The translations under genes and the position numbers were made by a program. The notes under the pieces are model-generated. The model was not told the DNA's origin and made no database searches. It saw nothing but the letters and a program-made list of their open reading frames with translations. A DNA stretch of 55,493 nucleotides from a virus. Its lineage: Duplodnaviria; Heunggongvirae; Uroviricota; Caudoviricetes. The stretch lies in IMG/VR virus record IMGVR_UViG_2663763400_000006; one strand, written 5' to 3'. Below, one piece after another: positions 12,882-38,924 of this stretch (the stretch's first letter is position 1; the number at the start of each line of letters is the position of its first letter).

Positions 12882-13826
12882 TTGATAGGATCAAAAATGG
12901 CACAACAGAGAACTACCTCCCTCAGATCCATACCTTTAGACTTAGATGTTAAGCAAGAGGCTGTCATTAACGGTATAGAAATGGGGGTACTCGATAACGG
13001 AATTCCGTACCTTACTCAGAATGGGTTGGCAAATGTTTGTGGTGTTCAGCGTTTGCGAATCAAGGAAATTACCGATGAGTGGGCTCAATCTGTTGAGAAC
13101 GGTATTTTCAAAAAAGGAAGAATGACTTTTATTGGTACATATCTTCTTAATGAAGGTTTTACAGATGAAAAACTTTATATACCAATAATTCGAAATGGTG
13201 TTGAGTACCATGCTTATCCAGATGTTGTATGCATGGCTATACTTGAATACTATGCCTTTGAAGCAAAACAAGCAGAAAGTGAGACTGCAATTAGATCTTA
13301 CAGAGAGCTTGCTAAAAAAGGCCTCAAGACATTTATATACGAGGCGCTAAAATATCAACCGGAGGACCCGTGGAGGCATTACCATGACAGAGTATCTTTA
13401 TTAAAAGATAAGGGAACCATACCTGATGGGTATTTCATTATATTTAATGAAATTGCAGGTATGATGGTAGATCTCATCAATGCTGGATTAGCGATTAATC
13501 AGCATACCGTACCTGATGGCAGTGTTGGTTCTTGCTGGGCGCGTCACTGGAAAGCAAAGGGGTTAGCAACAGAATTTGGAGAAAGAGTAGACTGTGAGCA
13601 TTATTACCCTGAAGATTTTCTTCAGGCAAGTTCCAATCCTCAGATCATTAATGCCTATCCTGATTCTGCATTGTCAGAGTTTCGTAGATGGTTTAAGCAT
13701 GAATATTTAACCACAAAGTTCCCACCGTATATTCTTAAAAAATCAAACGTGCTTCCTGGTGGTACAGAAGATGCTAATCGTCTGATAGAAGCTTTCAAAA
13801 AATCAGAGCTAGAAAATAAACCATAA
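12882..13826 (+). CDS. Hypothetical 314-aa protein (accessory gene in the nin region)
   Basis: Long AT-rich ORF with an upstream AT-rich leader; no domain I can assign with confidence. Confidence 0.5.
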   Translation: MIGSKMAQQRTTSLRSIPLDLDVKQEAVINGIEMGVLDNGIPYLTQNGLANVCGVQRLRIKEITDEWAQSVENGIFKKGRMTFIGTYLLNEGFTDEKLYIPIIRNGVEYHAYPDVVCMAILEYYAFEAKQAESETAIRSYRELAKKGLKTFIYEALKYQPEDPWRHYHDRVSLLKDKGTIPDGYFIIFNEIAGMMVDLINAGLAINQHTVPDGSVGSCWARHWKAKGLATEFGERVDCEHYYPEDFLQASSNPQIINAYPDSALSEFRRWFKHEYLTTKFPPYILKKSNVLPGGTEDANRLIEAFKKSELENKP

Positions 13827-15511: not shown

Positions 15512-15868
15512 ATGCGTGATATGTATGAAGTAATGGATCGTTGGGGAGCTTGGGCTGCTTCAGACAATAGCGGAGTGGACTGGCAGCCGATAGCGGCTGG
15601 TTTCAAGGGACTTTTACCTCATGGCAAAAAGTCACGGATTCAGTGTGATGATGACGAAGGCATCATGATAGACAGTTGTGTGGCTCGGTTGAGAAGGTAT
15701 AAACCAGAGGAATATGAGCTCATCATCGCCCACTTTGTTATCGGTATCTCATTACGCACTATTGCGAAGAAGAGAAAATGCTCTGATGGCACAATTAGGA
15801 AGGAACTGCAAACTGCAATGGGGTTTGTTGACGGCTGTTTAGCAATGTTAGCTTATAGTATGGCATAA
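15512..15868 (+). CDS. Q: Late-gene antiterminator Q (phage 82/21-type)
   Basis: MRDMYEVMDRWGAWAASDNSGVDWQPIAAGFKGLLP... with Cys/His-rich core; position after rusA. Confidence 0.7.
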   Translation: MRDMYEVMDRWGAWAASDNSGVDWQPIAAGFKGLLPHGKKSRIQCDDDEGIMIDSCVARLRRYKPEEYELIIAHFVIGISLRTIAKKRKCSDGTIRKELQTAMGFVDGCLAMLAYSMA

Positions 15869-17062
15869 AAAATAAAATAGATTTACTGCCGATTTTTCAA
15901 AAAAGACTGGGAACTGTTTATATCCAACGTAAATAAGGCCTCCATAAAACATGGCTGATGCGAGATATTTAACAGTTCTCATCCTTTTTTTAGCTTTATC
16001 AATCAAACCTGTAATGCTACTCTTAATACTATCTGCATTATCTTTGATTTCTTTATTTTCTTCAAACTTTAAATACTTATCGAAAGCGGACTCCACTCGA
16101 GAACGTAAGTTGTCGAATGTTTCATTGAATATCTCAATAGAAATGTAATTGACTTTTTTTATCATCCAAAGTCCTGCGATAATCAATATTGCTTCGGTTG
16201 TTTCATTAGCCTTCACTAAGCCACCAGCTGCTATTAATGCACCGGGAATAGTCAATGCTTTTGTCTGATTAGATGATATGAATTCGTTAATTTTACTCGT
16301 GAACTCAAGATTTTTCTCATCGAGTTCGTTAAGAATTTTATTTACAGAAAACCTCTTTGTGTAAATCTCATATAGTTCATCATATTTTTTCCTGACGAGT
16401 TCAGTAGAGTTAAGCAAGTCAAAGAAATTGAACGTACCATTTGCTTTAAATACTTCGTTTATGGCTGAGCGTATAACGAGCTTGCGCTCGCTTTTGTGTA
16501 AATCATTGATTTTTATTGTGTCGAGAAGCTCCTTTATAATTTCATATTTAAGAGACGAGTTCGATAAGCGATTAATCTCGCTATATTGTAAAAAATGCGT
16601 GAGTTCGACTGTATAACTTTTGTCTTCATTGGTGAAAAATAAGACAGAGCAGTCACTGTTATGATGATCAGCAATTAATGAAAGGATATCTTTCCACATA
16701 AAGAAAATATGGATTTTTTCGATGCTTTCATTCTTAGAAGTAGGGAGTATTAACGGCGTTCCGATGATATAATTTTTCGGAAGAGCGTTTTGGGTGTTTA
16801 CTCTAGACCAAAAAGACTCAACATTCTCATAAATTATAGCATCATCCCAAGATGAAGCTTGGCGATCTAGCCAAATTTCATTATTTTCGATGCAGGTTGT
16901 TGCCTTTTTATAACCTATAGATTGTAACAGTCTAATTATTTCAGAACTATTTACAATAACAATGCTTTCTTCAAGACTTATGACAGTGTAGTAGCCCTCA
17001 ACTCTGCTTGAGGCTCCGTTAATAATCTGCGCTAATCTTGATAAGTCATCAGCAATTGTCAT
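15848..17062 (-). CDS. Unknown 404-aa protein with C-terminal transmembrane helices (cassette gene 2)
   Basis: ATG at 17062, 2 bp after the upstream gene stop; strongly AT-rich; hydrophobic helices near the C-terminus (LTIPGALIAAGGLV, AILIIAGLWMI, YLASAMFYGGLIYVGY). Confidence 0.6.
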   Translation of the reverse strand: MTIADDLSRLAQIINGASSRVEGYYTVISLEESIVIVNSSEIIRLLQSIGYKKATTCIENNEIWLDRQASSWDDAIIYENVESFWSRVNTQNALPKNYIIGTPLILPTSKNESIEKIHIFFMWKDILSLIADHHNSDCSVLFFTNEDKSYTVELTHFLQYSEINRLSNSSLKYEIIKELLDTIKINDLHKSERKLVIRSAINEVFKANGTFNFFDLLNSTELVRKKYDELYEIYTKRFSVNKILNELDEKNLEFTSKINEFISSNQTKALTIPGALIAAGGLVKANETTEAILIIAGLWMIKKVNYISIEIFNETFDNLRSRVESAFDKYLKFEENKEIKDNADSIKSSITGLIDKAKKRMRTVKYLASAMFYGGLIYVGYKQFPVFFEKSAVNLFYFLCHTIS

Positions 17063-17064
17063 TA

Positions 17065-18240
17065 TTAGCTGTCTCTATATCTTTTGAGTTCATCATAATT
17101 TGCCTGACTCAATTTTATCACAATTTCGCATTTGTTGTCAGTGAGAATTACAGGCTTATTTGACTTTTCGTCTCCAATAGCTCCACGCATTATTTTCAAC
17201 TTAAAATTATTGTCGTTATCTGCCACTTCAATTGTAAGCGCGCTTTCAGCTGCTTTAGGAGTTGGTTCAAATTGAGGGTCAATCTGGAAACCATTAAGAT
17301 TAACAAAATCGACAAACGTTCCCTTACATTTGTGTGAATCAGTCAGGCATGAGTCAATTATTTTTGAAATATCCTCTATCTTAACGGACTTATTTCCGTG
17401 TTTATCTTTTGATTTTTTTTCCAGTAAGGATTTAACTTCATTGTCAATAGTATCACGCAGTACACGACCGAGTGAGTTTTTACTAGCAAAAATATCTATA
17501 GCACTGAATAATTGCTGAATGCTTCTTTTATTGTCCGAATCATGTCGGCAACCTAATGAGTCTTTGAAAAAATCGCTTTTAGATTTACCTTGCAAGAAAT
17601 GTACATATGAGTCACCCTTGTTTTCTGGATAACTGGCTTCGAATAAAGTTAAATCGAACATCGCAGCCTGCCGTAAGGCATCGGTATTAATTGGATTTAA
17701 TCTTGTTGGGGTCAACTTATCCGAATCAAAGTCATAGGCGCTTTGTTTATCAACCATTACGATTAGAAGTTTCCCCAAATCCTCTGGTTCGGTAGACTTA
17801 TAGTGGATGAAAACAACGCTCCCCCCCTGAAGTTGGGCAACTCTCGATTCGTTATTAGCATTATGTTTAAGCTTCTCTATTATAGCTCTAGATAAATCAA
17901 TGAATTCATTATTCTTATTAATGTATTTTTTTAGGATCGTAGGAATGGATGAAGGGTTGTGATCTGAGTCTAGGAAGTTATGAAATTTGTTTTTTCGGCT
18001 AAATTTTTTCTCAATTCTGGTTATGAATTCAGATGTGACTTCATTTTTTAGATCCCAAACTTCACCTAATCGATAATCAAATGCTCTTGAATCATTTTTT
18101 TCAAGATTTGCTGTTACAGCACCAATAGGAAAGTACGATTGTTTGCCCAGCACTACAACATGAGGCGTGGCACCGCATTTATCGCAAGCTACAGTTGGGT
18201 CGTCAAGAACATTGCCACATTCTAAACAAGTTATATCCAT
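17065..18240 (-). CDS. Zn-ribbon plus YejK/NdpA-like (NA37 nucleoid-associated family) protein (cassette gene 1)
   Basis: N-terminal CLECG...CDKCG zinc ribbon; motifs GGSVVFIHYK and YVHFLQGKSKSDFFKDSLG resemble YejK ([32 protein letters not shown]) as recalled; AT-rich. Confidence 0.55.
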   Translation of the reverse strand: MDITCLECGNVLDDPTVACDKCGATPHVVVLGKQSYFPIGAVTANLEKNDSRAFDYRLGEVWDLKNEVTSEFITRIEKKFSRKNKFHNFLDSDHNPSSIPTILKKYINKNNEFIDLSRAIIEKLKHNANNESRVAQLQGGSVVFIHYKSTEPEDLGKLLIVMVDKQSAYDFDSDKLTPTRLNPINTDALRQAAMFDLTLFEASYPENKGDSYVHFLQGKSKSDFFKDSLGCRHDSDNKRSIQQLFSAIDIFASKNSLGRVLRDTIDNEVKSLLEKKSKDKHGNKSVKIEDISKIIDSCLTDSHKCKGTFVDFVNLNGFQIDPQFEPTPKAAESALTIEVADNDNNFKLKIMRGAIGDEKSNKPVILTDNKCEIVIKLSQANYDELKRYRDS

Positions 18241-20839: not shown

Positions 20840-21060
20840 CATTTTGCGGGTCCTTTCCGGCGATCCGACAGGTTACGGGGCGGCGACCTCGCGGGTTTTC
20901 GCTATTTATGAAAATTTTCCGGTTTAAGGTGTTTCCGTTCTTCTTCGCCGTAACCTAATGTTTTTATTTAAAACACCCCCTGAAAAGAAAGGAAACGACA
21001 GGTGCTGAAAGCGAGCTTTTTGGCCTCTGTCGTTTCCTTTCTCTGTTTTTGTCCGTGGAA
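20840..21060. other. Phage cos site (cosQ-cosN-cosB)
   Basis: GGGCGGCGACCT cohesive-end sequence at about 20878-20889 inside gggtcctttccggcgatcc...cgggttttcgctatttatga, directly upstream of Nu1; lambda-like as recalled. Confidence 0.85.
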
Positions 21061-21066
21061 TGAGCA

Positions 21067-21586
21067 ATGGAAGTCAACAAAAAGCAGCTGGCTGACATTT
21101 TCGGTGCGAGTATCCGTACCATTCAGAACTGGCAGGAACAGGGAATGCCCGTTCTGCGAGGCGGTGGCAAGGGTAATGAGGTGCTTTATGACTCTGCCGC
21201 CGTCATAAAATGGTATGCCGAAAGGGATGCTGAAATTGAGAACGAAAAGCTGCGCCGGGAGGTTGAAGAACTGCTGCAGGCCAGCGAGACAGATCTCCAG
21301 CCAGGGACTATTGAGTACGAACGCCATCGACTTACGCGTGCGCAGGCCGACGCACAGGAGCTGAAAAATGCCAGAGACTCCGCTGAAGTGGTGGAAACCG
21401 CATTCTGTACTTTCGTGCTGTCGCGTATCGCAGGTGAAATTGCCAGTATTCTCGACGGGATCCCCCTGTCGGTGCAGCGGCGTTTTCCGGAACTGGAAAA
21501 CCGACATGTTGATTTCCTGAAACGGGATATCATCAAAGCCATGAACAAAGCAGCCGCGCTGGATGAACTGATACCGGGGTTGCTGA

Positions 21587-21612
<26 letters not shown>
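21067..21612 (+). CDS. nu1: Terminase small subunit Nu1
   Basis: 181 aa, MEVNKKQLADIFGASIRTIQNWQEQGMPVLRGGGKGNEVLYD... matches lambda Nu1 as recalled. Confidence 0.95.
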
Positions 21613-25293
<3,681 letters not shown>

Positions 25294-25313
<20 letters not shown>

Positions 25314-26613
25314 TCTCCCGCATATTGCCAGCATGGCCTTTAATGAGCCGCTGATGCTTGAACCCGCCTATGCGCGGGTTTTCTTTTGTGCGCTTGCAGG
25401 CCAGCTTGGGATCAGCCGCCTGACGGATGCGGTGTCCGGCGACAGCCTGACTGCCCAGGAGGCACTCGCGACGCTGGCATTATCCGGTGATGATGACGGA
25501 CCACGACAGGCCCGCAGTTATCAGGTCATGAACGGCATCGCCGTGCTGCCGGTGTCCGGCACGCTGGTCAGCCGGACGCGGGCGCTGCAGCCGTACTCGG
25601 GGATGACCGGTTACAACGGCATTATCGCCCGTCTGCAACAGGCCGCCAGCGACCCGATGGTGGACGGCATTCTGCTCGATATGGACACGCCAGGCGGAAT
25701 GGTGGCGGGGGCATTTGACTGCGCTGACATCATCGCCCGTGTGCGTGACATAAAACCGGTATGGGCGCTGGCCAACGACATGAACTGCAGTGCAGGTCAG
25801 CTGCTTGCCAGTGCCGCCTCCCGGCGTCTGGTCACGCAGACCGCCCGGACAGGCTCCATCGGCGTCATGATGGCTCACAGTAATTACGGTGCTGCCCTGG
25901 AGAAACAGGGCGTGGAAATCACGCTGATTTACAGCGGCAGCCATAAGGTGGATGGCACTCCTTACAGCCATCTTCCGGATGACGTCCGGGAGACACTGCA
26001 GTCCCGGATGGACGCAACCCGCCGGATGTTTGCGCAGAAGGTGTCGGCATATACCGGCCTGTCTGTGCAGGCTGTGCTGGATACCGAGGCTGCAGTGTAC
26101 AGCGGTCAGGAGGCCATTGATGCCGGACTGGCTGATGAACTTGTTAACAGCACCGATGCGATCACCGTCATGCGTGATGCACTGGATGCACATAAATCCC
26201 GTCTCTCAGGAGGGCGAATGACCAAAGAGACTCAATCAACAACTGTTTCAGCCACTGCTTCGCAGGCTGACGTTACTGAGGTGGTGCCAGCGACGGAGGG
26301 CGAAAACGCCAGCGCGGCGCAGCCGGACGTGAACGCGCAGATCACTGCAGCGGTTGCGGCAGAAAACAGCCGCATTATGGGGATCCTCAACTGTGAGGAG
26401 GCTCACGGACGCGAAGAACAGGCGCGCGTTCTGGCAGAAACCCCCGGTATGACCGTGGAAACGGCCCGCCGCATTCTGGCCGCAGCACCACAGAGTGCAC
26501 AGGCGCGCAGTGACACTGCGCTGGATCGTCTGATGCAGGGTGCACCGGCACCGCTGGCTGCAGGTAACCCGGCATCTGATGCCGTTAACGATTTGCTGAA
26601 CACACCAGTGTAA
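25294..26613 (+). CDS. C: Head protease/scaffold C (with nested Nu3)
   Basis: Matches lambda C from TAELRNLPHIASMAFNEPLMLEP...; start appears to be GTG at 25294, the ORF is open further upstream within the B overlap. Confidence 0.85.
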
Positions 26614-26622
26614 GGGATGTTT

Positions 26623-26955
26623 ATGACGAGCAAAGAAACCTTTACCCATTACCAGCCGCTGGGCAACAGTGACCCGGCTCATACCGCAACCGCGCCAGGC
26701 GGATTGAGTGCGAAAGCGCCTGCAATGACCCCGCTGATGCTGGACACCTCCACCCGTAAGCTGGTTGCGTGGGATGGCACCACCGACGGTGCTGCCGTTG
26801 GCATTCTTGCTGTTGCTGCTGACCAGACCAGCACCACGCTGACGTTCTACAAGTCCGGCACGTTCCGTTATGAGGATGTGCTCTGGCCGGAGGCTGCCAG
26901 CGACGAGACGAAAAAACGGACCGCGTTTGCCGGAACGGCAATCAGCATCGTTTAA
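26623..26955 (+). CDS. D: Head decoration protein D
   Basis: [43 protein letters not shown]... matches lambda D as recalled; AAGGGA Shine-Dalgarno. Confidence 0.9.
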
Positions 26956-27010: not shown

Positions 27011-27256
27011 ATGTCGATGTACACAACCGCCCAGCTGCTGGCGGCAAATGAGCAGAAATTTAAGTTTGATCCGCTGTTTCTGCGTCTCTTTTTCCGTGAG
27101 AGCTATCCCTTCACCACGGAGAAAGTCTATCTCTCACAAATTCCGGGGCTGGTAAACATGGCGCTGTACGTTTCGCCGATTGTTTCCGGTGAGGTTATCC
27201 GCTCCCGTGGCGGCTCCACCTCTGAATTTACGCCGGGATATGTCAAGCCGAAGCAC
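27011..27256 (+). pseudogene. E: Major capsid protein E, 5' fragment truncated by an insertion
   Basis: MSMYTTAQLLAANEQKFKFDPLFLRLFFRESYPFTTEKVYLSQIPGLVNMALYVSPIVSGEVIRSRGGSTSEFTPGYVKPKH then diverges into 9 unrelated codons and a stop at 27286. Confidence 0.85.
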
Positions 27257-27365
27257 TTAGCATGGCTTTCTGAGGCTTTCGTGTAGTTGCTGGTTTTTAC
27301 ACTTAATCTTTTGATAATAAAGAATAAGTTTATCTGGTGCTTTCACTGAATTTTCCTCGTTATCT

Positions 27366-27403
27366 GTGTGTTGCAATCATCTCTGTATTGCAGCTTGTAT
27401 TGC
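27366..27403. repeat. TGTATTGCA-type direct repeats upstream of the island integrase (possible arm sites)
   Basis: ctgtgtgttgcaatcatctctgtattgcagcttgtattgc; a similar pair occurs near the right end at about 38014-38040. Confidence 0.4.
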
Positions 27404-27418: not shown

Positions 27419-28654
27419 ATGGCTGGCGAGAACAAACTGAGCGACAAAGCGCTTAAAGGATATCTGGGGAAACCCAGAGAAAAGCAGATCACCATTGCTG
27501 ATGGAAAGGGGCTTTCTATTCGTGTGAGTACTAAAGGGGCTGTGAGCTTTGTTTTCTTCTACAGGTTAGCAGGTGGCCGGGCTGCTCCGGTCTGGCTAAC
27601 GTTGGGTAAATATCCTGATATGTCACTCAAACAGGCAAGGGAAAAGCGCGACGAGTGCCGTGGTTGGTTGGCTGACAAACGTGATCCGCGTATCCAGATT
27701 AAGATTCAGGCTGAAGAACGCTTAAAGCCGGTCACTGTGGAGGATGCACTAAATTACTGGTATGAAAATTACTGTAAGGTGCGTCGTAAAACTCATGCTG
27801 TAACGCTTGGCAGATTTCGAAAGCATATCTTTCCCTATATCGGTCATTTGCCCGTAAATGACACTCACCTATATGAATGGCTGGACTGTTTTGACCGAAT
27901 TAAACGTAATGCACCAGTTATGGCGGCGTATGTTTTTTCTGACACTAAATTAGCTCTTCGTTTTTGTCGGGTACGCCAGTACGCGACGTGTGATGCTTTA
28001 AAGGATTTGCGCATGAGTGATGTGGGGCAGATTGCAGGTAAGCGGGATCGGGTTCTGGATGAAGCCGAACTCGGCCAGCTCTGGAAGGCAATTTTTGTCG
28101 AGCCTGATTTAAAACTAATGTCTGAATACACGCGAAAAATGTTTGTGCTTTGTACAGTATTTGGATGTCGAATGAGTGAAGCCCGATTATCAGAATGGAG
28201 CGAATGGGATCTCGAAAGTTGGGTTTGGACTGTACCAAAAGATCACTCAAAAACTGGTGTTGAAATCGTCAGACCAGTACCTGAAATTCTACGACAGTGG
28301 GTAACGGATGTTCACGAAGAGACAAAACATACTGGTTATGTGCTGGGAAGTCTGCGAATTAGAGAAAGCGTAAGCAAGATTGGGGGGAAAATCGGTAAAC
28401 GTTTGGGCCATGAAAAACAATGGTCACTACACGACCTTAGAAGAACGCTATCTACTCATCTAAGTGATCTCGGTGTTGAATTTTATGTAGTAGAACAACT
28501 GTTAGGCCATGCGCTACCTGGCGTGGCAGGTGTTTACAACCGGAGTAAGTTTATGGCTAAAAAACTGGATGCTCTGGAACTCTGGACTACATATCTCAAT
28601 AGCATCGCAGGTGCTGATTCAAAAGTGACAATCCTCAAACAAAAGGTTGGTTAA
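27419..28654 (+). CDS. int: Island tyrosine integrase (P4/CP4-57 type)
   Basis: MAGENKLSDKALKG...GKGLSIRVSTKG N-terminus typical of P4-family integrases; C-terminal HDLRRT...LGHA...YNRSK catalytic motifs. Confidence 0.85.
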   Translation: MAGENKLSDKALKGYLGKPREKQITIADGKGLSIRVSTKGAVSFVFFYRLAGGRAAPVWLTLGKYPDMSLKQAREKRDECRGWLADKRDPRIQIKIQAEERLKPVTVEDALNYWYENYCKVRRKTHAVTLGRFRKHIFPYIGHLPVNDTHLYEWLDCFDRIKRNAPVMAAYVFSDTKLALRFCRVRQYATCDALKDLRMSDVGQIAGKRDRVLDEAELGQLWKAIFVEPDLKLMSEYTRKMFVLCTVFGCRMSEARLSEWSEWDLESWVWTVPKDHSKTGVEIVRPVPEILRQWVTDVHEETKHTGYVLGSLRIRESVSKIGGKIGKRLGHEKQWSLHDLRRTLSTHLSDLGVEFYVVEQLLGHALPGVAGVYNRSKFMAKKLDALELWTTYLNSIAGADSKVTILKQKVG

Positions 28655-28655
28655 C

Positions 28656-28883
28656 ATGAAAAAAATGGCAATTGTTGATAAAAAGGGTCTGGAGTACATT
28701 CCTAACATTGACCGAATGATCCGTGAGAAAGAATGTCGGGAGCTAACCACTCTTGCGAACAGCACACGCTGGAAGCTGGAGAAGGAAGGAAAATTTCCTA
28801 AGCGGATCAAGATTGGTTCCACTGCTGTTGCATATCGTCTTTCAGAAGTGCAGGCATGGATTCGAGGTGAGTGGGTAGTTTAA
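28656..28883 (+). CDS. alpA: AlpA-family excisionase/transcriptional regulator
   Basis: MKKMAIVDKKGLEYIPNIDRMIREKECRELTTLANSTRWKLEKEGKFPKRIKIGSTAVAYRLSEVQAWI, AlpA-like HTH; directly follows the integrase. Confidence 0.7.
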   Translation: MKKMAIVDKKGLEYIPNIDRMIREKECRELTTLANSTRWKLEKEGKFPKRIKIGSTAVAYRLSEVQAWIRGEWVV

Positions 28884-30260: not shown

Positions 30261-30350
30261 CACAATGATCGATTCATAAAAACGACGAAACCCGGCAGTG
30301 CGCGAACACTAACCGGGCTTCTAACCAAACCGTTAAACGAGGTAACGATT

Positions 30351-30716
30351 ATGGCTGGAACACAGCATACCCAAACTCACCCTAAATTTATATACACCTT
30401 TCTGGCACTACACCACGACCGCATGGCAGATGGAGCAACTACGGTACATGTAGCCGCTGACACGCTGGTTGATGCCCGCAAGATGGTTAAGGAGATGGGC
30501 TATACTGCGGCTTTCTGGAAAGGGCGTGAAGAAAACACGCTGTTTATTCAGAAATGCGAAAACAATTTCATCTGGCGTTTTATCGCCCTGAGTACGGCAC
30601 AACCGCGCGTGATTCACATCGTGGCCACCAGCGAACAGGAAGCCCGCCAGCAATCCCCGGCTGGTTGCGTGAGGGTATTCGCCGCCCGTATTCGTCAGGA
30701 GGTATGCCGTGCTTAA
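30351..30716 (+). CDS. Hypothetical protein, first gene of the rightward island operon
   Basis: 121-aa ORF beginning MAGTQHTQTHPKF; the ORF-track entry 29802..30716 is this gene with a spurious upstream extension. Confidence 0.4.
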   Translation: MAGTQHTQTHPKFIYTFLALHHDRMADGATTVHVAADTLVDARKMVKEMGYTAAFWKGREENTLFIQKCENNFIWRFIALSTAQPRVIHIVATSEQEARQQSPAGCVRVFAARIRQEVCRA

Positions 30717-31324: not shown

Positions 31325-31624
31325 ATGGAAATGAAAAATTCTGGCTTTATTGCCAGCGGCCCCGCTCGGCCTGAATTTATGAACGGCGATATTTACCGCG
31401 ATAAATACGGCGGCACGGTAACGATTAAAGGCGTGGCAGAACGGCGCATCACTTACCGCCGTGAGGGGTATAGCTATGACTGCGTGATGCCTGTTTATCA
31501 GTTCCGGCGTGATTTTTCCCTGGTATATGCCGCACCTCGCAGTAAGCCCACCAGCAGGGAAAAAGCGCGGGGAAACATCCAGAAAATGAAAAGCATGATT
31601 AACGCATTCAGGGGCAAAAAATGA
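31325..31624 (+). CDS. Hypothetical small protein
   Basis: 99-aa ORF overlapping the primase start. Confidence 0.3.
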   Translation: MEMKNSGFIASGPARPEFMNGDIYRDKYGGTVTIKGVAERRITYRREGYSYDCVMPVYQFRRDFSLVYAAPRSKPTSREKARGNIQKMKSMINAFRGKK

Positions 31625-33372
31625 AACTGGCACCGAACTTAAAAAAACAGCCACGCGACAGACTGACAGAGGTAATCATCTTTGCAGGTAGTGATGCGTG
31701 GAGCCATGCGAAAGAGTGGCAGGAATGGGCGGGTAAACATATTGCCGCCGACGATGTGCCGCCTGTCGTGCTGGCTGATGAGCAACTGAAAAACATCATC
31801 GATTACCGGATCATTGATGAAGATCGTCAGTGTGTGCGTGTTTACCGCGCAGGACATATCACAGAGCACAGCATGACGCAGATTGTTACGTTACTGGCTG
31901 TGGCTGGAGTGAAGACCGTACACGAATACGCGGGGATTACTGACACCAGCCCCGTGGATTTATCCGACCAGTTGCCGCGACTCAAAGAGGAATGCGAGCG
32001 TGGGGAAAGTCTGGTGCTTAATCTTCCGACGAAGCAAAAGGCGCAACTTTCACAGATGGCAGACAGTGAACGTGCACAACTACTTGCCGATCGCTTTGAT
32101 GGTGTGTGTGTTCATGCAGAAAGTGAAATCGTCCACGTATGGCGCGGCGGGGTATGGTGTCCGGTCAGCACAATGGAGCTGAGCCGCGAAATGGTGGCGA
32201 TCTATTCAGAGCACAGGGCCACGTTCAGCAAACGTGTAATCAATAACGCCGTGGAAGCGTTAAAAGTTATTGCCGACCCCATGGGGGAGCCGTCCGGTGA
32301 TTTACTACCGTTCACTAATGGTGTGCTTAACCTGAAAACGGGGGATTTTTCTCCGCACTTACCGGAGCACTGGAGCACCACGCACAATGGCATTGAGTAC
32401 ACGCCACCAGTAGCAGGGGAAAACATCCGCGATAATGCGCCAAATTTCCATAAATGGCTTGAACATGCTGCAGGAAAAGACCCGCGCAAGATGATGCGTA
32501 TATGTGCCGCGTTATACATGATTATGGCGAACCGCTACGACTGGCAGATGTTCATTGAGGCCACCGGAGACGGGGGAAGCGGTAAGAGTACATTTACCCA
32601 TATTGCCACCCTGCTTGCTGGCAAACAGAACACCGTAAGCGCAGAGATGACATCACTCGATGATGCAGGAGGGCGCGCGCAGGTTGTCGGGAGTCGTCTT
32701 ATCGTCCTTGCCGATCAGCTGAAATATACGGGGGAAGGCACGGGCATCAAGAAAATCACGGGAGGCGATCCCGTTGAAATTAACCCGAAATATGAGAAGC
32801 GATTCACGACGATAATAAGGGCGGTGGTACTGGCAACCAATAACGACCCGATGATCTTTACCGAACGGGCCGGAGGTGTGTCACGCCGTCGGGTGATTTT
32901 CCGGTTCGACAACATTGTAAGGGAGGACGAAAAAGACAAGGAATTACCGGAAAAGATAGCGGCAGAAATCCCCGTAATTATCCGCCGCTTGCTGGCTAAT
33001 TTTGCTGACCCTGAAAAGGCACGGGCTTTATTACTGGAACAGCGTGACGGTGATGAAGCTCTGGCAATAAAGCAGCAAACGGATCCGGTTGTTGAGCTTT
33101 GCGCGGCGCTGGAGTTTCTGGAGGAAGCTCGTGGGCTAATGATGGGCGGTGGTGGTGACACCGTGAAGTACACGACCAGAAACAGCCTTTACCGTGTCTA
33201 TATGGCCTTCATGGCATATACAGGAAAGGGGAAATGTTTGAGCGTGAATGAGTTCGGAAAGGCTATGAGGTCAGCGGCGAAAGTTTACGGATATGAATAT
33301 ATTACGCGAAAAGTTAAGGGAGTCACGCAGACCAACGCAACGACTACTGATGATTGCGATGCGTTTTTATAA
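31621..33372 (+). CDS. Primase-helicase replication protein (D5_N / P4 alpha-like)
   Basis: 583 aa with Walker A GDGGSGKST and downstream helicase-like motifs. Confidence 0.8.
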   Translation: MKLAPNLKKQPRDRLTEVIIFAGSDAWSHAKEWQEWAGKHIAADDVPPVVLADEQLKNIIDYRIIDEDRQCVRVYRAGHITEHSMTQIVTLLAVAGVKTVHEYAGITDTSPVDLSDQLPRLKEECERGESLVLNLPTKQKAQLSQMADSERAQLLADRFDGVCVHAESEIVHVWRGGVWCPVSTMELSREMVAIYSEHRATFSKRVINNAVEALKVIADPMGEPSGDLLPFTNGVLNLKTGDFSPHLPEHWSTTHNGIEYTPPVAGENIRDNAPNFHKWLEHAAGKDPRKMMRICAALYMIMANRYDWQMFIEATGDGGSGKSTFTHIATLLAGKQNTVSAEMTSLDDAGGRAQVVGSRLIVLADQLKYTGEGTGIKKITGGDPVEINPKYEKRFTTIIRAVVLATNNDPMIFTERAGGVSRRRVIFRFDNIVREDEKDKELPEKIAAEIPVIIRRLLANFADPEKARALLLEQRDGDEALAIKQQTDPVVELCAALEFLEEARGLMMGGGGDTVKYTTRNSLYRVYMAFMAYTGKGKCLSVNEFGKAMRSAAKVYGYEYITRKVKGVTQTNATTTDDCDAFL

Positions 33373-33389
33373 AAAATGGCAATGGTTAT

Positions 33390-33640
33390 CTACCTTGTCT
33401 ACCTGACTGAAATAAAATACTTTTATTTCAATGTATTAATGCAGGTAGATAACTATTTTTCACTGTCTACCTGTTATCTACCTTATCTACCCATTTTTGT
33501 AGACAGGTAAGGAGACGGGTAGAGATGAGGTAGACAGCTATTTGGGGCTGTCTACCTCCCTGAAACCCGCGCCATTACTGGCCTGATAACTAATCAGGTA
33601 GACAAGGTAGACAAGGTGGTGGTGCACAAAAAACTTTTTA
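33390..33640. repeat. Island replication origin iterons
   Basis: Ten or more copies of GGTAGACA / TGTCTACC in both orientations immediately downstream of the primase-helicase gene. Confidence 0.65.
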
Positions 33641-33661
33641 AACGAGGGGGTAAAAATAAAA

Positions 33662-33904
33662 ATGCACACATCAGGAAAACTGAACAAACATATAAAGCCA
33701 CATTACCGCGCCCTTGATATGGCTGAACACTGGCTAAGGGTGGCGATTAAGGCAATAGACCGCAACGCCGGGGAAGGATACGCGAAAGCACATCCCGAAC
33801 TGATAAGCGCATTCATGACAACGGCGGCTGCAAACTTTGCCACGCTGACCGAACGGGAGATTGCCGAAGCGGAGGAAGTGACAACCATCAATATTAAGTC
33901 CTGA
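33662..33904 (+). CDS. Hypothetical protein
   Basis: 80-aa ORF between the origin and ssb. Confidence 0.3.
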   Translation: MHTSGKLNKHIKPHYRALDMAEHWLRVAIKAIDRNAGEGYAKAHPELISAFMTTAAANFATLTEREIAEAEEVTTINIKS

Positions 33905-33915
33905 GAGCAGGCAGC

Positions 33916-34365
33916 ATGACGGCGCAAATAGCAGCTTACGGGCGGCTGGTGGACGACCCACAGGTAAAACATACCAGCAAGGGAACACCCATGACACTGG
34001 CACGGATGGCGGTATCTTTGCCATGCAGCCAGGCAGATGACGGAACGGCGACGATGTGGTTATCTGTGCTGGCGTTTGGCAGACAAGCCGACGCGCTGGC
34101 AAAGCATCACAAAGGCGAACTCCTGAGCGTGGCGGGTAATATGCAGGTGAGCCAGTGGAGCGGACAGAACGGGGAAACGCGGCAGGGCTGGCAGGTTATC
34201 GCAGACAGCGTAATCAGTGCCAGAACGGTGCGACCGGGCGGCAAAAAAGGTCAACAGGGGCAGGCTACTGATGCACTGAACAGAGCAAAACAACAGGCAG
34301 ATCAGCAAGGAAGCCATCCACCAGTGGGAGATAATGAGCAATGGGGAGATGATATTCCGTTTTAA
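33916..34365 (+). CDS. ssb: Single-stranded DNA-binding protein
   Basis: OB-fold-like N-terminal domain and Gly/Gln-rich tail ending in the acidic motif DDIPF. Confidence 0.7.
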   Translation: MTAQIAAYGRLVDDPQVKHTSKGTPMTLARMAVSLPCSQADDGTATMWLSVLAFGRQADALAKHHKGELLSVAGNMQVSQWSGQNGETRQGWQVIADSVISARTVRPGGKKGQQGQATDALNRAKQQADQQGSHPPVGDNEQWGDDIPF

Positions 34366-34575: not shown

Positions 34576-35622
34576 ATGAGTATGGTTGATTTATATTCGC
34601 CTGCCCAGCTTGTGCAGGTGGCTAATGCAGAAGAGGTGCAAAAAAAATTAAATGCATTGTTTACCAGTTTGTTTTTCACTCGCTCGGTAATGTTTGAATC
34701 AAGAGACATTATTCTTGATACAATCGACGATCCAAATATCCCAATTGCAGCGTTTTGTTCTCCTATGGTGGGTAGTAAAGTTTCACGTGACGAAGGGTAC
34801 GAATCAAAGACAATTCGTCCAGGCTATATGAAGCCGAAAAGCAGCATTGATCCAAATAAGTTAGCTGTGCGCCCTGCTGGTGTATCACCTGAGCAATACA
34901 ATGCTTTTGGAGCGCGTAATATTAAAGTTAAACAGGCGATTGTAAATCAGGCTAAAGCTATTCGTGCACGTATTGAATGGCTTGCCGTTCAGGCAATCAC
35001 AACGGGGAAAAATATCATTGAGGGCGATGGCATTGAACGCTATGAACTGGACTGGAATATAAAACCACAAAATATTATCACGCAGTCCGGCGGTGCTGAG
35101 TGGTCAGGTAAGGATAAAGAAACTTTTGATCCAAATGATGATATTGAGAGCTACGCAGAATTTAGTGAGGGCGTCACTAATATCATCATTATGGGCGGTA
35201 ATGTATGGAAGAAATACCGTTCATTCAGAGCGATAAAAGAGGCTCTGGATACCCGTCGTGGTTCTAATTCCGAACTGGAAACGGCCCTTAAAGACCTTGG
35301 TGATTCGGTGAGTTTTAAAGGGTATATGGGCGATGTTGCGATTGTTGTATACAGCGGGCGTTATACCGACGAGGACGGAACTGAAAAACATTTCCTTGAT
35401 CCTGATTTGATGGTGCTTGGCAATACGGCTCTTCAGGGGATTGTCGCCTATGGCGGTATTCAGGATCCGGAGCTAATCCGAATGGGGCTGACTAAAGCCG
35501 AACTTGCACCGAAAAACTATATTGTGCCTGGTGATCCGGCTATTGAATATGTGCAGACACATTCAGCACCACAGCCAATACCGGCCCGCATCAATCGTTT
35601 TGTTACCGTTCGCATTGGCTAA
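34576..35622 (+). CDS. Island-encoded major capsid protein homologue (divergent gpE)
   Basis: TQSGGAEWSGKDKETFDPNDDIESYAEF...RSFRAIKEALDTRRGSNSELETALKDLG...YMGDVAIVVYSG aligns with lambda E (TQSGGTEWSKRDKSTYDPTDDIEAYAL...FRSFKAVKEKLDTRRGS.SELETAVKDLG...GDVAIVVYSG); ATG 34576 with AAGAGG Shine-Dalgarno. Confidence 0.8.
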   Translation: MSMVDLYSPAQLVQVANAEEVQKKLNALFTSLFFTRSVMFESRDIILDTIDDPNIPIAAFCSPMVGSKVSRDEGYESKTIRPGYMKPKSSIDPNKLAVRPAGVSPEQYNAFGARNIKVKQAIVNQAKAIRARIEWLAVQAITTGKNIIEGDGIERYELDWNIKPQNIITQSGGAEWSGKDKETFDPNDDIESYAEFSEGVTNIIIMGGNVWKKYRSFRAIKEALDTRRGSNSELETALKDLGDSVSFKGYMGDVAIVVYSGRYTDEDGTEKHFLDPDLMVLGNTALQGIVAYGGIQDPELIRMGLTKAELAPKNYIVPGDPAIEYVQTHSAPQPIPARINRFVTVRIG

Positions 35623-35631
35623 GGGGGAGCA

Positions 35632-35973
35632 ATGGCTACTCATTACACTGAACTCATGGCTGGCACTGAAGCACTGGTGACTACGCTGGGGATATTTTCA
35701 GCTAATAAAGGGGTAATTCCTGCATTTACGCCACTGATGCAGGAAGATGCAACAGGTGCACTGGTGGTATGGGATGGTTCGAGCGTAGGTAAAGCGGTTT
35801 ATGTTTCCGCTGTACAAATCGACACCGCGAAAAAAACACAGGCTCAGGTCTATAAGACAGGTGTCTTAAATGTTGATGCTCTGAACTGGCCTGAGTCTGT
35901 AAAAGAACTGTCAGTAAAGATTGCAGCGTTTGTTGGCTCAGGTATTTCTGTTCAGCCGCTGGCTCGTGTGTAA
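35632..35973 (+). CDS. Island-encoded decoration protein homologue (gpD-like)
   Basis: FTPLMQEDATGALVVWDGSSVGKAV and VYKTGVLNVDALNWPE align with lambda D ([41 protein letters not shown]). Confidence 0.65.
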   Translation: MATHYTELMAGTEALVTTLGIFSANKGVIPAFTPLMQEDATGALVVWDGSSVGKAVYVSAVQIDTAKKTQAQVYKTGVLNVDALNWPESVKELSVKIAAFVGSGISVQPLARV

Positions 35974-35984
35974 AGGGGGATACA

Positions 35985-36368
35985 ATGCAGAATCATTACA
36001 ATGACCTTAAGCCAATTGCCGAAATGATGTATCCGGATCCAGCAGTAGAGGAATTAAAGGCTATTGCTGACAAAATGCGTTTAAGCGAGCGTCTTGTTGA
36101 TATGAATCAGGTGATGGAACTTACAACCCTGAGTCGTCGTACACTGCTAAACCTTGAAGCACGTGGAGAGTTCCCCGAACGCGTGCAGGTTACGGAAGGG
36201 CGTAAGGCCTGGTATTTAAGCGAAGTGATCGACTGGATAAACAATATTCCGCGCGCTTCTGAATATTGCCGCGTACCTGTCCCAAAAAAGCCAGATGCGG
36301 CGCTATGCCTCAAGATTGAGCGTGTACGCCGCAATGCGCGGGATGGTCGCTATAAGCTGATTGGTTGA
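35985..36368 (+). CDS. AlpA-like HTH protein (second copy in the island)
   Basis: LTTLSRRTLLNLEARGEFPERVQVTEGRKAWYLSEVIDWI resembles the AlpA-family HTH signature. Confidence 0.45.
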   Translation: MQNHYNDLKPIAEMMYPDPAVEELKAIADKMRLSERLVDMNQVMELTTLSRRTLLNLEARGEFPERVQVTEGRKAWYLSEVIDWINNIPRASEYCRVPVPKKPDAALCLKIERVRRNARDGRYKLIG

Positions 36369-36379
36369 TGAAATTAGGG

Positions 36380-36470
36380 CCCGTTCTGGCTGGCGGGTCC
36401 TTTCCGGCGATCCAGAACGTTACGGGGCGGCGACCTCGCGGGTTTTCGCTATTTATGAGCATTTTTAGGG
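36380..36470. other. Second cos site (island), cosN conserved with the prophage cos
   Basis: gggtcctttccggcgatccagaacgttacggggcggcgacctcgcgggttttcgctatttatga is nearly identical to 20840-20910; downstream (cosB) sequence differs. Confidence 0.75.
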
Positions 36471-36584
36471 GACTGGTGGTGGTTTTGTTGTTCGCTATAT
36501 CTGTATGAATAATAAGAGAAAAACACAATCAACACACCAACCTGAAACAGTAATTAAGTTGTGGTATCAATGAAATTGCACCTG

Positions 36585-37112
36585 ATGAACAAAAAAAACA
36601 TGGCAAAAAGTTGCCGTGTAAGCGCCACTGCGTTCGATAAGTGGGGAGTGATTCCCGTCGAGCGTAAGGGCCGCGAGGCGTTTTATGATGTCGCCAGTGT
36701 AATAGATAATCGGGTTAACAATGCAATCAGCCAGATTACAAACGAAACGGGCGAGATTGATGATGATGAACTCCTACGAGTCAGGATCAGATTGCTGACA
36801 GCACAGGCAGAGGCGCAGGAGCTTAAAAACGAGCGCGAACGCGGCGACGTTATTGATACAGCGTTTTGTATATACGTGCTTTCAAAACTGGCGAGTCAGA
36901 TTTCTTCAATCATGGACAGCCTGCCGCTTGCCATGACAAGGAAGTTTCCCGACATGAAGCCGTCTATGCTGGATGGACTGAAAAAAGAAGTTATCAGAGC
37001 CTGTAACGCATGCGCAAAACTTGACGAAAACATACCGCTGATGCTGTCCGATTATCTGATGGAAACTGCCGGAAACGTACCGGATAAGTTGCAGCTGAAT
37101 AAAGATAAGTAA
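36585..37112 (+). CDS. Island small terminase homologue (Nu1-like)
   Basis: LLTAQAEAQELKNERERGDVIDTAFCIYVLSKLASQISSIMDSLPLAMTRKFPDMK aligns with prophage Nu1 LTRAQADAQELKNARDSAEVVETAFCTFVLSRIAGEIASILDGIPLSVQRRFPELE; start taken at MNKKNMAK. Confidence 0.75.
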   Translation: MNKKNMAKSCRVSATAFDKWGVIPVERKGREAFYDVASVIDNRVNNAISQITNETGEIDDDELLRVRIRLLTAQAEAQELKNERERGDVIDTAFCIYVLSKLASQISSIMDSLPLAMTRKFPDMKPSMLDGLKKEVIRACNACAKLDENIPLMLSDYLMETAGNVPDKLQLNKDK

Positions 37113-37123
37113 CGTAGTACGCT

Positions 37124-37405
37124 ATGACTGAATCCGAAATACTGCGATTAATCCGCCGTGCTTGTGGAATCAGCAAGCAGCATGACGAACAGGCCACGCA
37201 GCCGGACAGCGTGATCGCCGAAAATTACGCGCGTGTTGTTGCTGATGTGATGCGCCGTGATGGTATTGAGCTTAACGGCGTGGATATGCGCGACATACGG
37301 ATCAGATTCCTTGAGTTGCTGGCATACCGTCGCCGTTCTCAACAACGAAGGGAGAGCGCGAAAAACACTTATCAGTGGAAGAAGCCGGAACGGTTGCGGC
37401 GGTAG
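37124..37405 (+). CDS. Hypothetical protein
   Basis: 93-aa basic ORF following the terS-like gene. Confidence 0.3.
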   Translation: MTESEILRLIRRACGISKQHDEQATQPDSVIAENYARVVADVMRRDGIELNGVDMRDIRIRFLELLAYRRRSQQRRESAKNTYQWKKPERLRR

Positions 37406-38141
37406 ATTCCTGATATTCAGGAAAACCACGAATCCGGGGGTTTTACTGGCGCGGTGTACACGGTGGAACGTATAGCGTTACCTGACTTATTGCATTGTAA
37501 AAAGTTGAAAGGCACGGCCTGTAAGATGGGATGTGGTGAGTAGTTTAAAGCTACCCGCAAATTCTTTCGTTGTGCTGGCACAGGCGGTTAAACCGTCGGT
37601 AACTGGATAATCCCCACTGGGGGAAAAGCTGGCTACATCCCTCACATCTGAGGACTGATAACGCAAAATTGCGTTGGCTGGCAGAGTGCAAATTTGCACG
37701 ATGGCCTAACCCATTGATTCTTTCGAAAACCCCCATTGGGGGAGAACGGGGGAATAAACCTGACTCATTGATTTTTCCACAATCCTTAATTTGAGGAAGC
37801 TGGATAGTTGCACTACCCAAAAAGTGCAGTACCCACATAGCTGCTTAATAGCGTTTATTTTTTCCGCACACCTCAAATCTGAGAAGGCCGGAATGATGAC
37901 ATGGCAGGATTATGATTCCTTGATTTCAAGGAGTCCTCCAGTGTGAAAATGAAATTATCTGGGCTGGTGGGTGAGTTGCTGATCTGCAACTCGGCTATGA
38001 AACTTAATAATCGAACAGCATGTAAATTCATTTCTGTGTATTGCAGCATGTATTGCAACATAGTCATTCTGGTAGAGATTATGCTCTATTTTTCCTCTTA
38101 TATCATTCACATACTTACGTCATTGACTCATGTAGCCGAAG

Positions 38142-38924
38142 CATGAGGTGAATCCGCAGATGACCCTGCGTCGCCTGCCGGATGAAGATCCGCAGAATCT
38201 GGCGGACCCGGCTTACCGCCGCCGTCGCATCATTATGCAGAACATGCGTGACGAAGAGCTGGCCATTGCCCAGGTCGAAGAGATGCAGGCAGTTTCTGCC
38301 GTGCTTAAGGGCAAATACACCATGACCGGTGAAGCTTTCGATCCGGTTGAGGTGGATATGGGCCGCAGTGCGGCCAACAACATCACGCAGTCCGGCGGCA
38401 CGGAGTGGAGCAAGCGTGACAAGTCCACGTATGACCCGACCGACGATATCGAAGCCTACGCGCTGAACGCCAGCGGAGTGGTGAATATCATCGTGTTTGA
38501 TCCGAAAGGCTGGGCGCTGTTCCGTTCCTTCAAAGCCGTCAAGGAGAAGCTGGATACTCGTCGCGGCTCTCATTCCGAGCTGGAGACAGCGGTGAAAGAC
38601 CTGGGCAAAGCGGTGTCCTACAAGGGGATGTATGGCGATGTGGCCATCGTCGTGTATTCCGGACAGTACGTGGAAAACGGCGTCAAAAAGAACTTCCTGC
38701 CGGACAACACGATGGTGCTGGGGAACACTCAGGCACGCGGTCTGCGCACCTATGGCTGCATTCAGGATGCGGACGCACAGCGCGAAGGCATTAACGCCTC
38801 TGCCCGTTACCCGAAAAACTGGGTGACCACCGGCGATCCGGCGCGTGAGTTCACCATGATTCAGTCAGCACCGCTGATGCTGCTGGCTGATCCTGATGAG
38901 TTCGTGTCTGTACAACTGGCGTAA
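38142..38924 (+). pseudogene. E: Major capsid protein E, 3' fragment
   Basis: HEVNPQMTLRRLPDEDPQNLADPAYRRRRIIMQNMRDEE... to the lambda E C-terminus; continues the 5' fragment exactly once the insert is removed. Confidence 0.85.

Follow-up and report, generated by a model that had tools for sequence, protein, structure and literature searches.

The island and its late block

The DNA analyzed here, referred to below as the window, is a 55,493-nucleotide Caudoviricetes sequence (IMG/VR record IMGVR_UViG_2663763400_000006) that contains a lambda-like prophage, the resident helper, with a 10,888-bp island inside helper gene E. The subject of this study is the late block of the island, which is composed of genes for a homologue of the lambda major capsid protein gpE, a gpD-like head-decoration protein, a 127-residue AlpA-like protein and a small terminase (TerS), with a cos site upstream of the terminase gene and a conserved 93-residue open reading frame (ORF) downstream of it (Table 1). 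The sequence suggests that the TerS and the cosB segment of this cos site form a satellite-owned pair that redirects packaging. The named island genes all lie on the plus strand, as do the late genes of the helper, and the insertion, at the codon-80 site of E, has the orientation of the prophage late operon.

Disruption of helper gene E had been proposed in a first-pass annotation of the window, made from the DNA alone, and is confirmed by the position of the two parts of the gene on either side of the island, with a 10-bp direct repeat at the junctions. Joining the two halves across the 10-bp core reconstructs a lambda-like reading frame of 341 residues, 338 of which are identical to lambda gpE. 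While the island is integrated, its own capsid gene is the only uninterrupted E-family gene at the locus, as that annotation had suggested it might be.

By its sequence the island is a phage-inducible chromosomal island (PICI) of the Gram-negative kind and belongs to the helper-embedded class already in the literature (HE-PICI), capE group, with a TerS-type late module; it is a mosaic of known modules. It is placed in the capE group because its integrase is identical at 409 of 411 positions to that of the prototype, 11capE, and because the same type of 10-bp core is found in E. Its size, within the 10-15 kb usual for such islands, its unidirectional organization, the presence of integrase, alpA and primase-replication genes and the absence of lysis and tail genes all fit a Gram-negative PICI, as does the four-zone layout of integrase and AlpA, small regulatory ORFs, DUF4222-primase-SSB (31325-34365) and late block. 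No sid, psu, delta or alpha-type primase was found among the Pfam and PHROG matches and the helper is lambda-like, so the island does not classify as a P4-like satellite. Portal, protease and large terminase (TerL) genes are likewise missing from the 18 RefSeq coding sequences of a near-identical copy of the island and from the ORF list of the island itself, in agreement with the first-pass annotation. The three late genes that it listed also stand, though the AlpA-like gene and the cos site that lie among them had been left out.

Table 1. Positions of island and helper features in the window, late block first.
Feature	Position	Strand	Basis or remark
Major capsid protein homologue (c1499 family, lambda gpE / HK97 fold)	34582..35622, alternative start 34576	+	Pfam, PHROG, PDB
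Head-decoration protein homologue (c1500 family, gpD-like)	35632..35973	+	Pfam HDPD, PHROG 49
127-aa AlpA-like winged-helix protein	35985..36368	+	Pfam Phage_AlpA 1.4e-8; PHROG 2790 1.8e-48; PDB 8c3t 1.6e-10
Island cosQ and cosN	36393..36465	+	73 bp, 92% identical to helper cos 20846-20918
Island cosB: putative R3-like site GGTGGTGGTTTTGTTG, then conserved CAACACACCAACC block	36466..36569	+	Kept in four TerS-type islands
Small terminase, Nu1 family, N15-like DNA-binding end	36570..37112	+	Pfam, PHROG
Conserved 93-aa ORF	37124..37405	+	PHROG 1561, 1.3e-53; 73% identical to CFT073 ORF 3' of rppA
attL core AGCCGAAGCA, island left boundary, within helper E	27246..27255	+	Direct repeat of 38134-38143
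attR core AGCCGAAGCA, island right boundary	38134..38143	+	10-bp direct repeat
Helper gene E, 5' fragment	27011..27255	+	Pfam Phage_cap_E positions 1-78
Helper gene E, 3' fragment	38144..38924	+	Pfam Phage_cap_E positions 94-328
Tyrosine integrase, HE-PICI capE clade	27419..28654	+	Pfam Arm-DNA-bind_3 and Phage_integrase; 409/411 identical to 11capE integrase (NRG857c)
AlpA-family regulator or excisionase, integration zone	28656..28883	+	Pfam Phage_AlpA 2.8e-15
99-aa DUF4222 ORF just 5' of primase	31325-31624	+	Corresponds to RgdR in length and position
Primase-helicase (D5_N / DUF5906), replication zone	31621..33372	+	PHROG 864, 3e-158
Single-strand DNA-binding protein	33916..34365	+	Pfam SSB 1.2e-14
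Helper cos (cosQ, cosN, lambda-type cosB with R3/R2/R1) and Nu1	20846..21612	+	Sequence and cos comparisons
Helper Nu1	21067-21612	+	Late gene order
Helper A (gpA, large terminase)	21587-23512	+	Late gene order
Helper portal (lambda B homologue)	23712-25313	+	In-frame stop
Helper C	25294-26613	+	Late gene order
Helper D	26623-26955	+	Late gene order; tail genes lie past split E

Capsid and decoration genes

The capsid gene is likelier to begin at ATG 34582, which follows AAGAGG at a spacing of 6 nt and is the start annotated in the near-identical RefSeq copy, giving a protein of 346 rather than 348 residues. The protein matches Pfam Phage_cap_E (PF03864) with E=1.7e-41 and 142.8 bits against a cut-off of 22.9, over model positions 3-327 of 329, and PHROG 29 (major head protein) at 1.2e-89. 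Two solved structures are matched from end to end, 3bqw from an E. coli prophage (3e-121; titled 'Putative capsid protein of prophage') and lambda gpE (7vi9, 1.1e-77), and because of these end-to-end matches the capsid fold can be regarded as settled. The decoration gene begins 10 nt past the capsid stop codon, and its product matches Pfam HDPD (PF02924; 4.4e-15, 56.3 bits against 29.1) and PHROG 49 (1.2e-25). Together with the terminase matches given below, these Pfam, PHROG and PDB results, whose E-values lie far outside the range of chance, bear out the prediction that the block encodes an intact full-length capsid protein, a D-like decoration protein and a Nu1-like TerS.

The island capsid protein and helper E share 147 of 339 aligned residues, and identity is unevenly distributed, reaching 60-65% at E residues 161-280 and 21-38% at residues 1-160. 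The decoration protein is 38% identical to helper D. In lambda the first half of the capsid protein contributes the N-arm, E-loop and spine helix, which make the inter-capsomer contacts and bind gpD, and a diverged capsid periphery accompanied by a diverged D would fit a co-evolved capsid-cement pair. Searching 50,697 phage genome records with tblastn returned lambda E as the best phage match to the capsid protein, at 42%; since the island protein is only ~42-43% identical to lambda-type E, it was not recently captured from the resident helper. Most likely the two proteins are a conserved cognate pair and take part in building the head, either together with gpE and gpD or in their place. By analogy with c1499 and c1500 of EcCICFT073, they would be accessory and not required for transfer; deletion of c1499 or c1500 changed neither transfer of that island nor its interference with lambda (PMC6092414).

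Small terminase and cos site

The terminase gene is likelier to start at ATG 36570, as in RefSeq, than at 36561, and encodes 180 residues. The product matches Pfam Phage_Nu1 (PF07471) at 1.4e-24, with 87 bits against a cut-off of 30 over model positions 33-162 of 164, and PHROG 57 at 8.3e-52. It is 38% identical to helper Nu1 and aligns with it through Nu1 residue 181, with identity of 35% in residues 1-68 (the DNA-binding part), 67% in residues 69-99, 49% in residues 100-140 and 44% in residues 141-181. The closest terminase among the phage records is N15 gp1 (47.6%); the value for lambda Nu1 is 38.9%. Over the full alignment with gp1 identity is 48%, and the similarity is concentrated in the first 50 residues, with ~58% identity there as counted on the printed alignment. 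No TerL is found beside the island TerS or elsewhere among the 18 coding sequences of the near-identical RefSeq copy, and its partner would have to be helper gpA.

The cosQ/cosN element lies 105 nt upstream of the TerS gene and is the sole nucleotide similarity between island and prophage; its 12-nt cohesive end, GGGCGGCGACCT, is the same in the island (36425-36436) and in the helper (20878-20889). The cosB region of the island, ~105-130 bp between cosN and terS, has no similarity to the helper cosB with its R3, R2 and R1 sites. In an alignment of six cos regions, cosQ and cosN are kept in all, and the class of cosB tracks the gene downstream: the helper cosB is of lambda type, the RppA-type cosB of CFT073 differs from the TerS type, and GGTGGTGGTTTTGTT...CAAyACACCAACCTGAA is common to all four independent TerS-type islands, so that the conserved cosB block accompanies this TerS in 4/4 cases. 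The island cosB also has TTGTTGTT in common with the left end of N15, at an equal distance from cosN, which is the position of R3.

Two other assignments for cos-like DNA in the island were rejected. A helper-like cos at the right end of the island (37406-38133) was considered, but no similarity was found there and cos is the element upstream of terS. The ~75-bp element at 36393-36472, which occurs in almost all E. coli genomes, was considered as a repetitive extragenic palindrome or small RNA and is in fact cosQ/cosN as carried by lambdoid prophages. Two related islands (L007 and L008) and EcCICFT073 have, between terS or rpp and the 93-residue ORF, another cosN-like sequence in inverted orientation, CCGCCGCCCCGTAACGGGCC; at the corresponding place (37113-37123) the window island is without that ~56-bp segment.

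The TerS gene occupies the slot that holds rpp in EcCICFT073, with cos upstream and a homologous 93-residue ORF (73%) downstream. TerS and RppA gave no BLASTP alignment, and a PDB search with TerS did not recover the RppC structure 6hlk, whereas the same search with RppA, the 144-residue ORF 3' of cos in CFT073, did (5e-31). Of the features of the Rpp family, kinship and short length are thus absent from the island protein and the cos-rpp arrangement, a helper-like cosQ/cosN with a non-helper cosB, is present. The TerS system may work like the Rpp system without TerS being a member of the Rpp family.

Selection, phage relatives and distribution

Pairwise dN/dS (ratio of nonsynonymous to synonymous substitution rates) was calculated from alignments of the late-block genes. 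Values were 0.04-0.09 for the capsid gene (dS 0.08-0.20), ~0.1 for the decoration gene in informative pairs (dS ~0.2), 0-0.1 for the 127-residue helix-turn-helix (HTH) protein in pairs with dS of ~0.19 or more, 0.14 for TerS (dS 0.73-0.76) and 0.15-0.35 for the 93-residue ORF. The late-block genes are under purifying selection, and the capsid, decoration and TerS values speak against their being pseudogenes, an outcome that the first-pass annotation had allowed for. No record in the phage set exceeds 60% identity to the island capsid protein or TerS, which points to satellite-specific lineages for both; the TerS, like the capsid protein, is no recent acquisition from the resident helper.

The distribution of the block was determined in 5,426 complete E. 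coli genomes. An 11.4-kb query, made up of the island with its two junctions to E, is matched over at least 80% of its length in 43 of them, and in all of the matches listed the 'major capsid protein' gene is split into fragments that flank the island genes. The whole late block is found at a coverage of at least 80% in 139 of the genomes, and this TerS with its cosB in 763 (~14%), O157:H7 included; full-length matches place the TerS-type right end in the capE site in four complete genomes only. The block of capsid, decoration, HTH, cos, TerS and 93-residue ORF also occurs, with other integrases, in PICIs next to tRNA-Pro/yejM and between abgR and smrA, so the capsid module is not tied to disruption of E. 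In O157:H7, the island between roxA and phoQ (the site of EcCICFT073) has a CFT073-type capsid and decoration pair and a c1501-like gene, followed by the present TerS lineage and the 93-residue ORF.

A TerS-cosB pair that would redirect packaging

We favor, at a probability of about 0.75, the reading that the late zone of this HE-PICI carries a satellite-owned TerS-cosB specificity pair, N15-like in recognition, which would redirect packaging toward the island. Upon induction of the helper, the composite would excise and replicate, and the island genes would be transcribed, in part by read-through of helper late transcription. The island would then excise and form concatemers. The island TerS is predicted to bind its own cosB through the N15-like DNA-binding end, while its conserved central and C-terminal parts would bring helper gpA to the shared cosN; mixed oligomers of TerS with helper Nu1 are also possible. 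Island DNA would be cut and packaged into heads built with the helper portal and protease/scaffold, and fitted with the helper tail. By analogy, the pair would achieve what Rpp does in EcCICFT073 and what TerS-S does in pac-type Staphylococcus aureus pathogenicity islands (SaPIs).

Several observations weigh against this reading. A single stop codon interrupts the helper portal reading frame at codon 157 (24180-24182), and RefSeq marks the portal gene 'internal stop' in a near-identical copy of the locus. The resident helper may therefore be unable to make heads, and the island copy in this genome may not be mobilizable by its own prophage; the composite may be immobile or need another helper. 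A search of the island cosB for an IHF consensus was negative, and a repeat finder gave no repeated R sites there. The C-terminal 41 residues of TerS are only 44% identical to helper Nu1, so binding to helper gpA is not assured, and by eye the C-termini of N15 gp1 and lambda Nu1 look much more alike. Strong purifying selection on the capsid and decoration genes sits uneasily with the lack of a phenotype for their homologues. Finally, the literature searched holds no experimental work on TerS-type E. coli PICIs, this island included.

The nearest competitor, tentative at best, is that TerS acts as a poison in the manner of Rpp, forming mixed oligomers with helper Nu1 that block recognition of the helper cosB and redirect the complex to the island cos, with Nu1 still needed. 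The segment of highest similarity to Nu1 (67%, residues 69-99) adjoins the lambda/phi80 mutations that escape Rpp (E65K, D68G, L69R and R70P; PMC6739421), TerS sits in the same genomic slot as rpp, and Fillol-Salom et al. have proposed that Rpp descends from TerS (PMC6739421). Rpp proteins, however, have 139-154 residues and lack the C-terminal 30-40 residues to which TerL binding is ascribed (PMC9026076), whereas TerS is full length and aligned to the TerL-binding C-terminal part of Nu1, and it shows no sequence similarity to RppA.

The proposal of the first-pass annotation, capsid substitution, appears unlikely. It holds that the island capsid and decoration proteins build satellite shells, perhaps of smaller T number, on a borrowed helper portal, protease/scaffold, TerL and tail while helper E stays split. 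In its favor, the capsid gene is complete, its product aligns along its whole length with lambda gpE and 3bqw, and it comes with a cognate D of its own that is 38% identical to that of the helper; the N-terminal half of the capsid protein is far more diverged (21-38%) than the middle (60-65%); dN/dS is 0.04-0.1 in a satellite lineage that has no close phage copy; and the island has the orientation of the helper late operon, with E split during integration. As a matter of arithmetic only, four island units make 43.6 kb, and a smaller shell would match one or two. The same module nevertheless occurs in PICIs that leave E intact, joining of the cores restores E, and in the prototype the satellite was seen to excise once the composite had replicated (PMC10111431); in addition, no scaffold or size-determination gene was identified in the island. 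Substitution is therefore not required and finds little support, given that the module occurs where E is uninterrupted and that core joining restores E. Nor is a capsid gene of its own unusual for a satellite, as had been thought, since one is found in 21 of 29 reference Gram-negative PICIs (PMC10111431) and SaPIbov5 carries Ccm (PMC6092414). Direct support for an altered capsid size is also lacking: the c1499 and c1500 deletions were neutral, the packaged DNA of EcCICFT073 was all phage-sized and no phenotype was found for c1499 (PMC6092414).

A related view, which we likewise consider improbable, is that the satellite pair forms shells carrying satellite DNA, or co-forms them with gpE, and in the helper-embedded configuration is the sole source of capsid protein up to island excision. 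In that case the satellite would set the composition of the head and, through its own TerS and cosB, the contents, and would borrow portal, protease, TerL and tail. Such a role would account for the strong purifying selection on both genes and for the lack of close phage copies, and the published null phenotype of c1499 and c1500 would reflect the helpers and assays chosen.

Less probable still is that the capsid gene is a captured late gene serving as a backup copy while helper E is interrupted, a possibility suggested by Tommasini et al., who already note that helper E cannot be expressed until excision and that helper late transcription should read into the island (PMC10111431). The island does encode a homologue of the very gene that it interrupts, which was the basis of the search that discovered 11capE (PMC10111431), and late read-through would express the capsid gene. 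Against this, the capsid and decoration pair is also present in islands at chromosomal sites, identity to lambda-type E is, at ~42-43%, too low for a recent capture from the helper, and knock-out of a PICI capsid gene is tolerated (PMC6092414). That the late genes are decaying, functionless remnants of captured phage genes is very improbable, for although c1499 and c1500 have no phenotype (PMC6092414) and other capE islands carry a terS with an internal stop or a 64-residue Nu1 stub, the reading frames here are intact, dN/dS is 0.04-0.14 at dS of up to 0.2-0.75, and the module is kept in hundreds of genomes across islands with different integrases and sites.

These findings leave current views in place. 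What is new is the evidence of selection, the lack of a close phage copy, the TerS in the rpp slot and the separate cosB beside a helper-like cosQ/cosN. In the E. coli genomes listed among the 43 matches, the split 'major capsid protein' fragments around such islands represent the published satellite-helper composite and should not be read as defunct prophages or faulty assembly. The capsid and decoration genes are tightly constrained (dN/dS 0.04-0.1) and belong to a lineage distinct from all sequenced phages, yet no phenotype is known for them in Gram-negative PICIs; the tight constraint and the distinct lineage therefore indicate that these proteins have an unrecognized function.

Other features of the island and prophage

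The 127-residue protein of the late block is a paralogue of the AlpA of the integration zone, to which it is 37% identical. It was considered as an Rpp- or TerS-like protein and rejected, as no PDB match to RppC was found and it resembles the Nu1 HTH only marginally (E=0.17). In islands of this capsid type its gene is invariably flanked by the decoration gene and cos, and EcCICFT073 has in its place an unrelated ORF of 137 residues (c1501). The 93-residue ORF was considered as RgdR and likewise rejected, since RgdR, a type III secretion regulator of enterohemorrhagic E. coli, is the 99-residue C1493/ECs1581 (PMC3378721), and length and position point instead to the DUF4222 ORF upstream of the primase gene, which carries NGD in place of the RGD motif.

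Repeats of the TGTATTGCA type are found near both ends of the island (27380-27403 and 38033-38056), and an IHF consensus lies near attL (27304-27316). These are probably arm sites of the integrase, comparable to the doubled motif reported for HE-PICIs. The ~730 bp at the right end (37406-38133) contain no convincing ORF, and parts of this segment are common to many E. coli genomes; sister islands carry defense-like cargo at this position (TIR, HEPN/DUF262 and DUF2971). An Rfam scan of the window gave no match at the gathering threshold, and a symR-like match on the minus strand of the regulatory zone (30284-30356) was weak, reaching 35.3 bits (E=0.0011) where the gathering score is 61.

In the prophage, the gene at 12882-13826 (+) encodes a homologue of the abortive-infection protein BstA (PADLOC BstA, E=3.8e-121). 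Upstream of the helper lysis genes, a pair of minus-strand genes at 15848-18240 with a GC content of 34-36% encodes a 404-residue protein without a family match and a 391-residue protein resembling the nucleoid-associated protein NA37 (Pfam, 1.2e-23). PADLOC gave no match for this pair, which may be a moron or defense cargo.

Comparison with known satellites and phages

The prototype of the group, 11capE, was described by Tommasini, Mageeney and Williams (2023) as an 11-kb PICI that interrupts the E gene of a lambdoid prophage in E. coli NRG857c, with a 10-bp att identity block and an E-family capsid gene of its own; the term helper-embedded PICI was coined in the same study, and 201 instances were reported for the gene E site (PMC10111431). 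The window island has the same E site, AlpA, primase and SSB, with identities of 98.6% for the capsid protein, 100% for the decoration protein and 96% for the 127-residue HTH protein. The two differ at the right end. In 11capE, described as without terS (PMC10111431), there are a lambda-like cosB, a 64-residue Nu1 stub, an altered cosN 12-mer and HEPN/DUF262 cargo, whereas the window island has a canonical cosN, its own cosB, an intact 180-residue TerS, the 93-residue ORF and no cargo genes. The altered 12-mer of 11capE is GGGCGTCAGGCG (NRG857c 28080-28110), and its own helper has GGGCGGCGACCT (12950-12962). Among other capE islands, one has a Nu1-type terS with an internal stop together with DUF2971 cargo, and another carries a TIR-domain gene but lacks an annotated terS.

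Capsid-forming PICIs (cf-PICIs; Alqurainy et al., bioRxiv 10.1101/2022.09.08.507074) resemble the window island in having their own capsid protein and TerS, but supply the complete set of capsid and packaging proteins themselves and borrow nothing except tails, whereas the present island has no portal, protease, connector or TerL. The likeness to SaPIs is a functional analogy only: in pac SaPIs the satellite TerS-S redirects helper TerL (PMC6092414, PMC6739421), and in SaPIbov5 the satellite carries the capsid homologue Ccm (PMC6092414). The hosts of SaPIs are Gram-positive and the sequences unrelated, TerS-S serves headful packaging, and Ccm makes small capsids, which have not been seen for E. 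coli PICIs. In phage N15, gp1 is followed by its own TerL and the cohesive end is unlike that of lambda, while the lambda/helper 12-mer is retained in the island; compared with gp1, the island TerS is also more diverged at its C-terminus.

EcCICFT073 has the same four-zone layout and the same late order of capsid (c1499), decoration protein (c1500), small ORF, cos, packaging gene and 93-residue ORF, and it too combines a helper-like cosQ/cosN with its own cosB. It differs in its chromosomal site between roxA and phoQ, in a capsid protein that is 54% identical, in a c1501 unrelated to the 127-residue HTH protein, and in its packaging gene, which is rppA, encoding 144 residues without the TerL-binding end, where the window island has a full TerS. 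The roxA-phoQ island of O157:H7, which may correspond to O-island 51/CP-933C, a published relative of EcCICFT073, shares with the window island, as do other TerS-type E. coli PICIs, the TerS lineage (~82% at the nucleotide level), the same cosB and the following 93-residue ORF; its chromosomal site, its CFT073-type capsid, decoration and c1501 genes, and a RepA-type helicase instead of the primase set it apart.

One conserved PICI slot thus holds rpp, a full TerS or a decaying Nu1 stub, each with a different cosB. A terS homologue has been noted in some Gram-negative PICIs (Fillol-Salom 2018, PMC6092414), and Rpp has been proposed to have evolved from TerS (Fillol-Salom 2019, PMC6739421). TerS-type islands of the same architecture fit that proposal, and their TerS-cosB pair is the natural comparison for it; the pair would also allow testing of whether a satellite can recruit a lambda-type TerL without the helper TerS.

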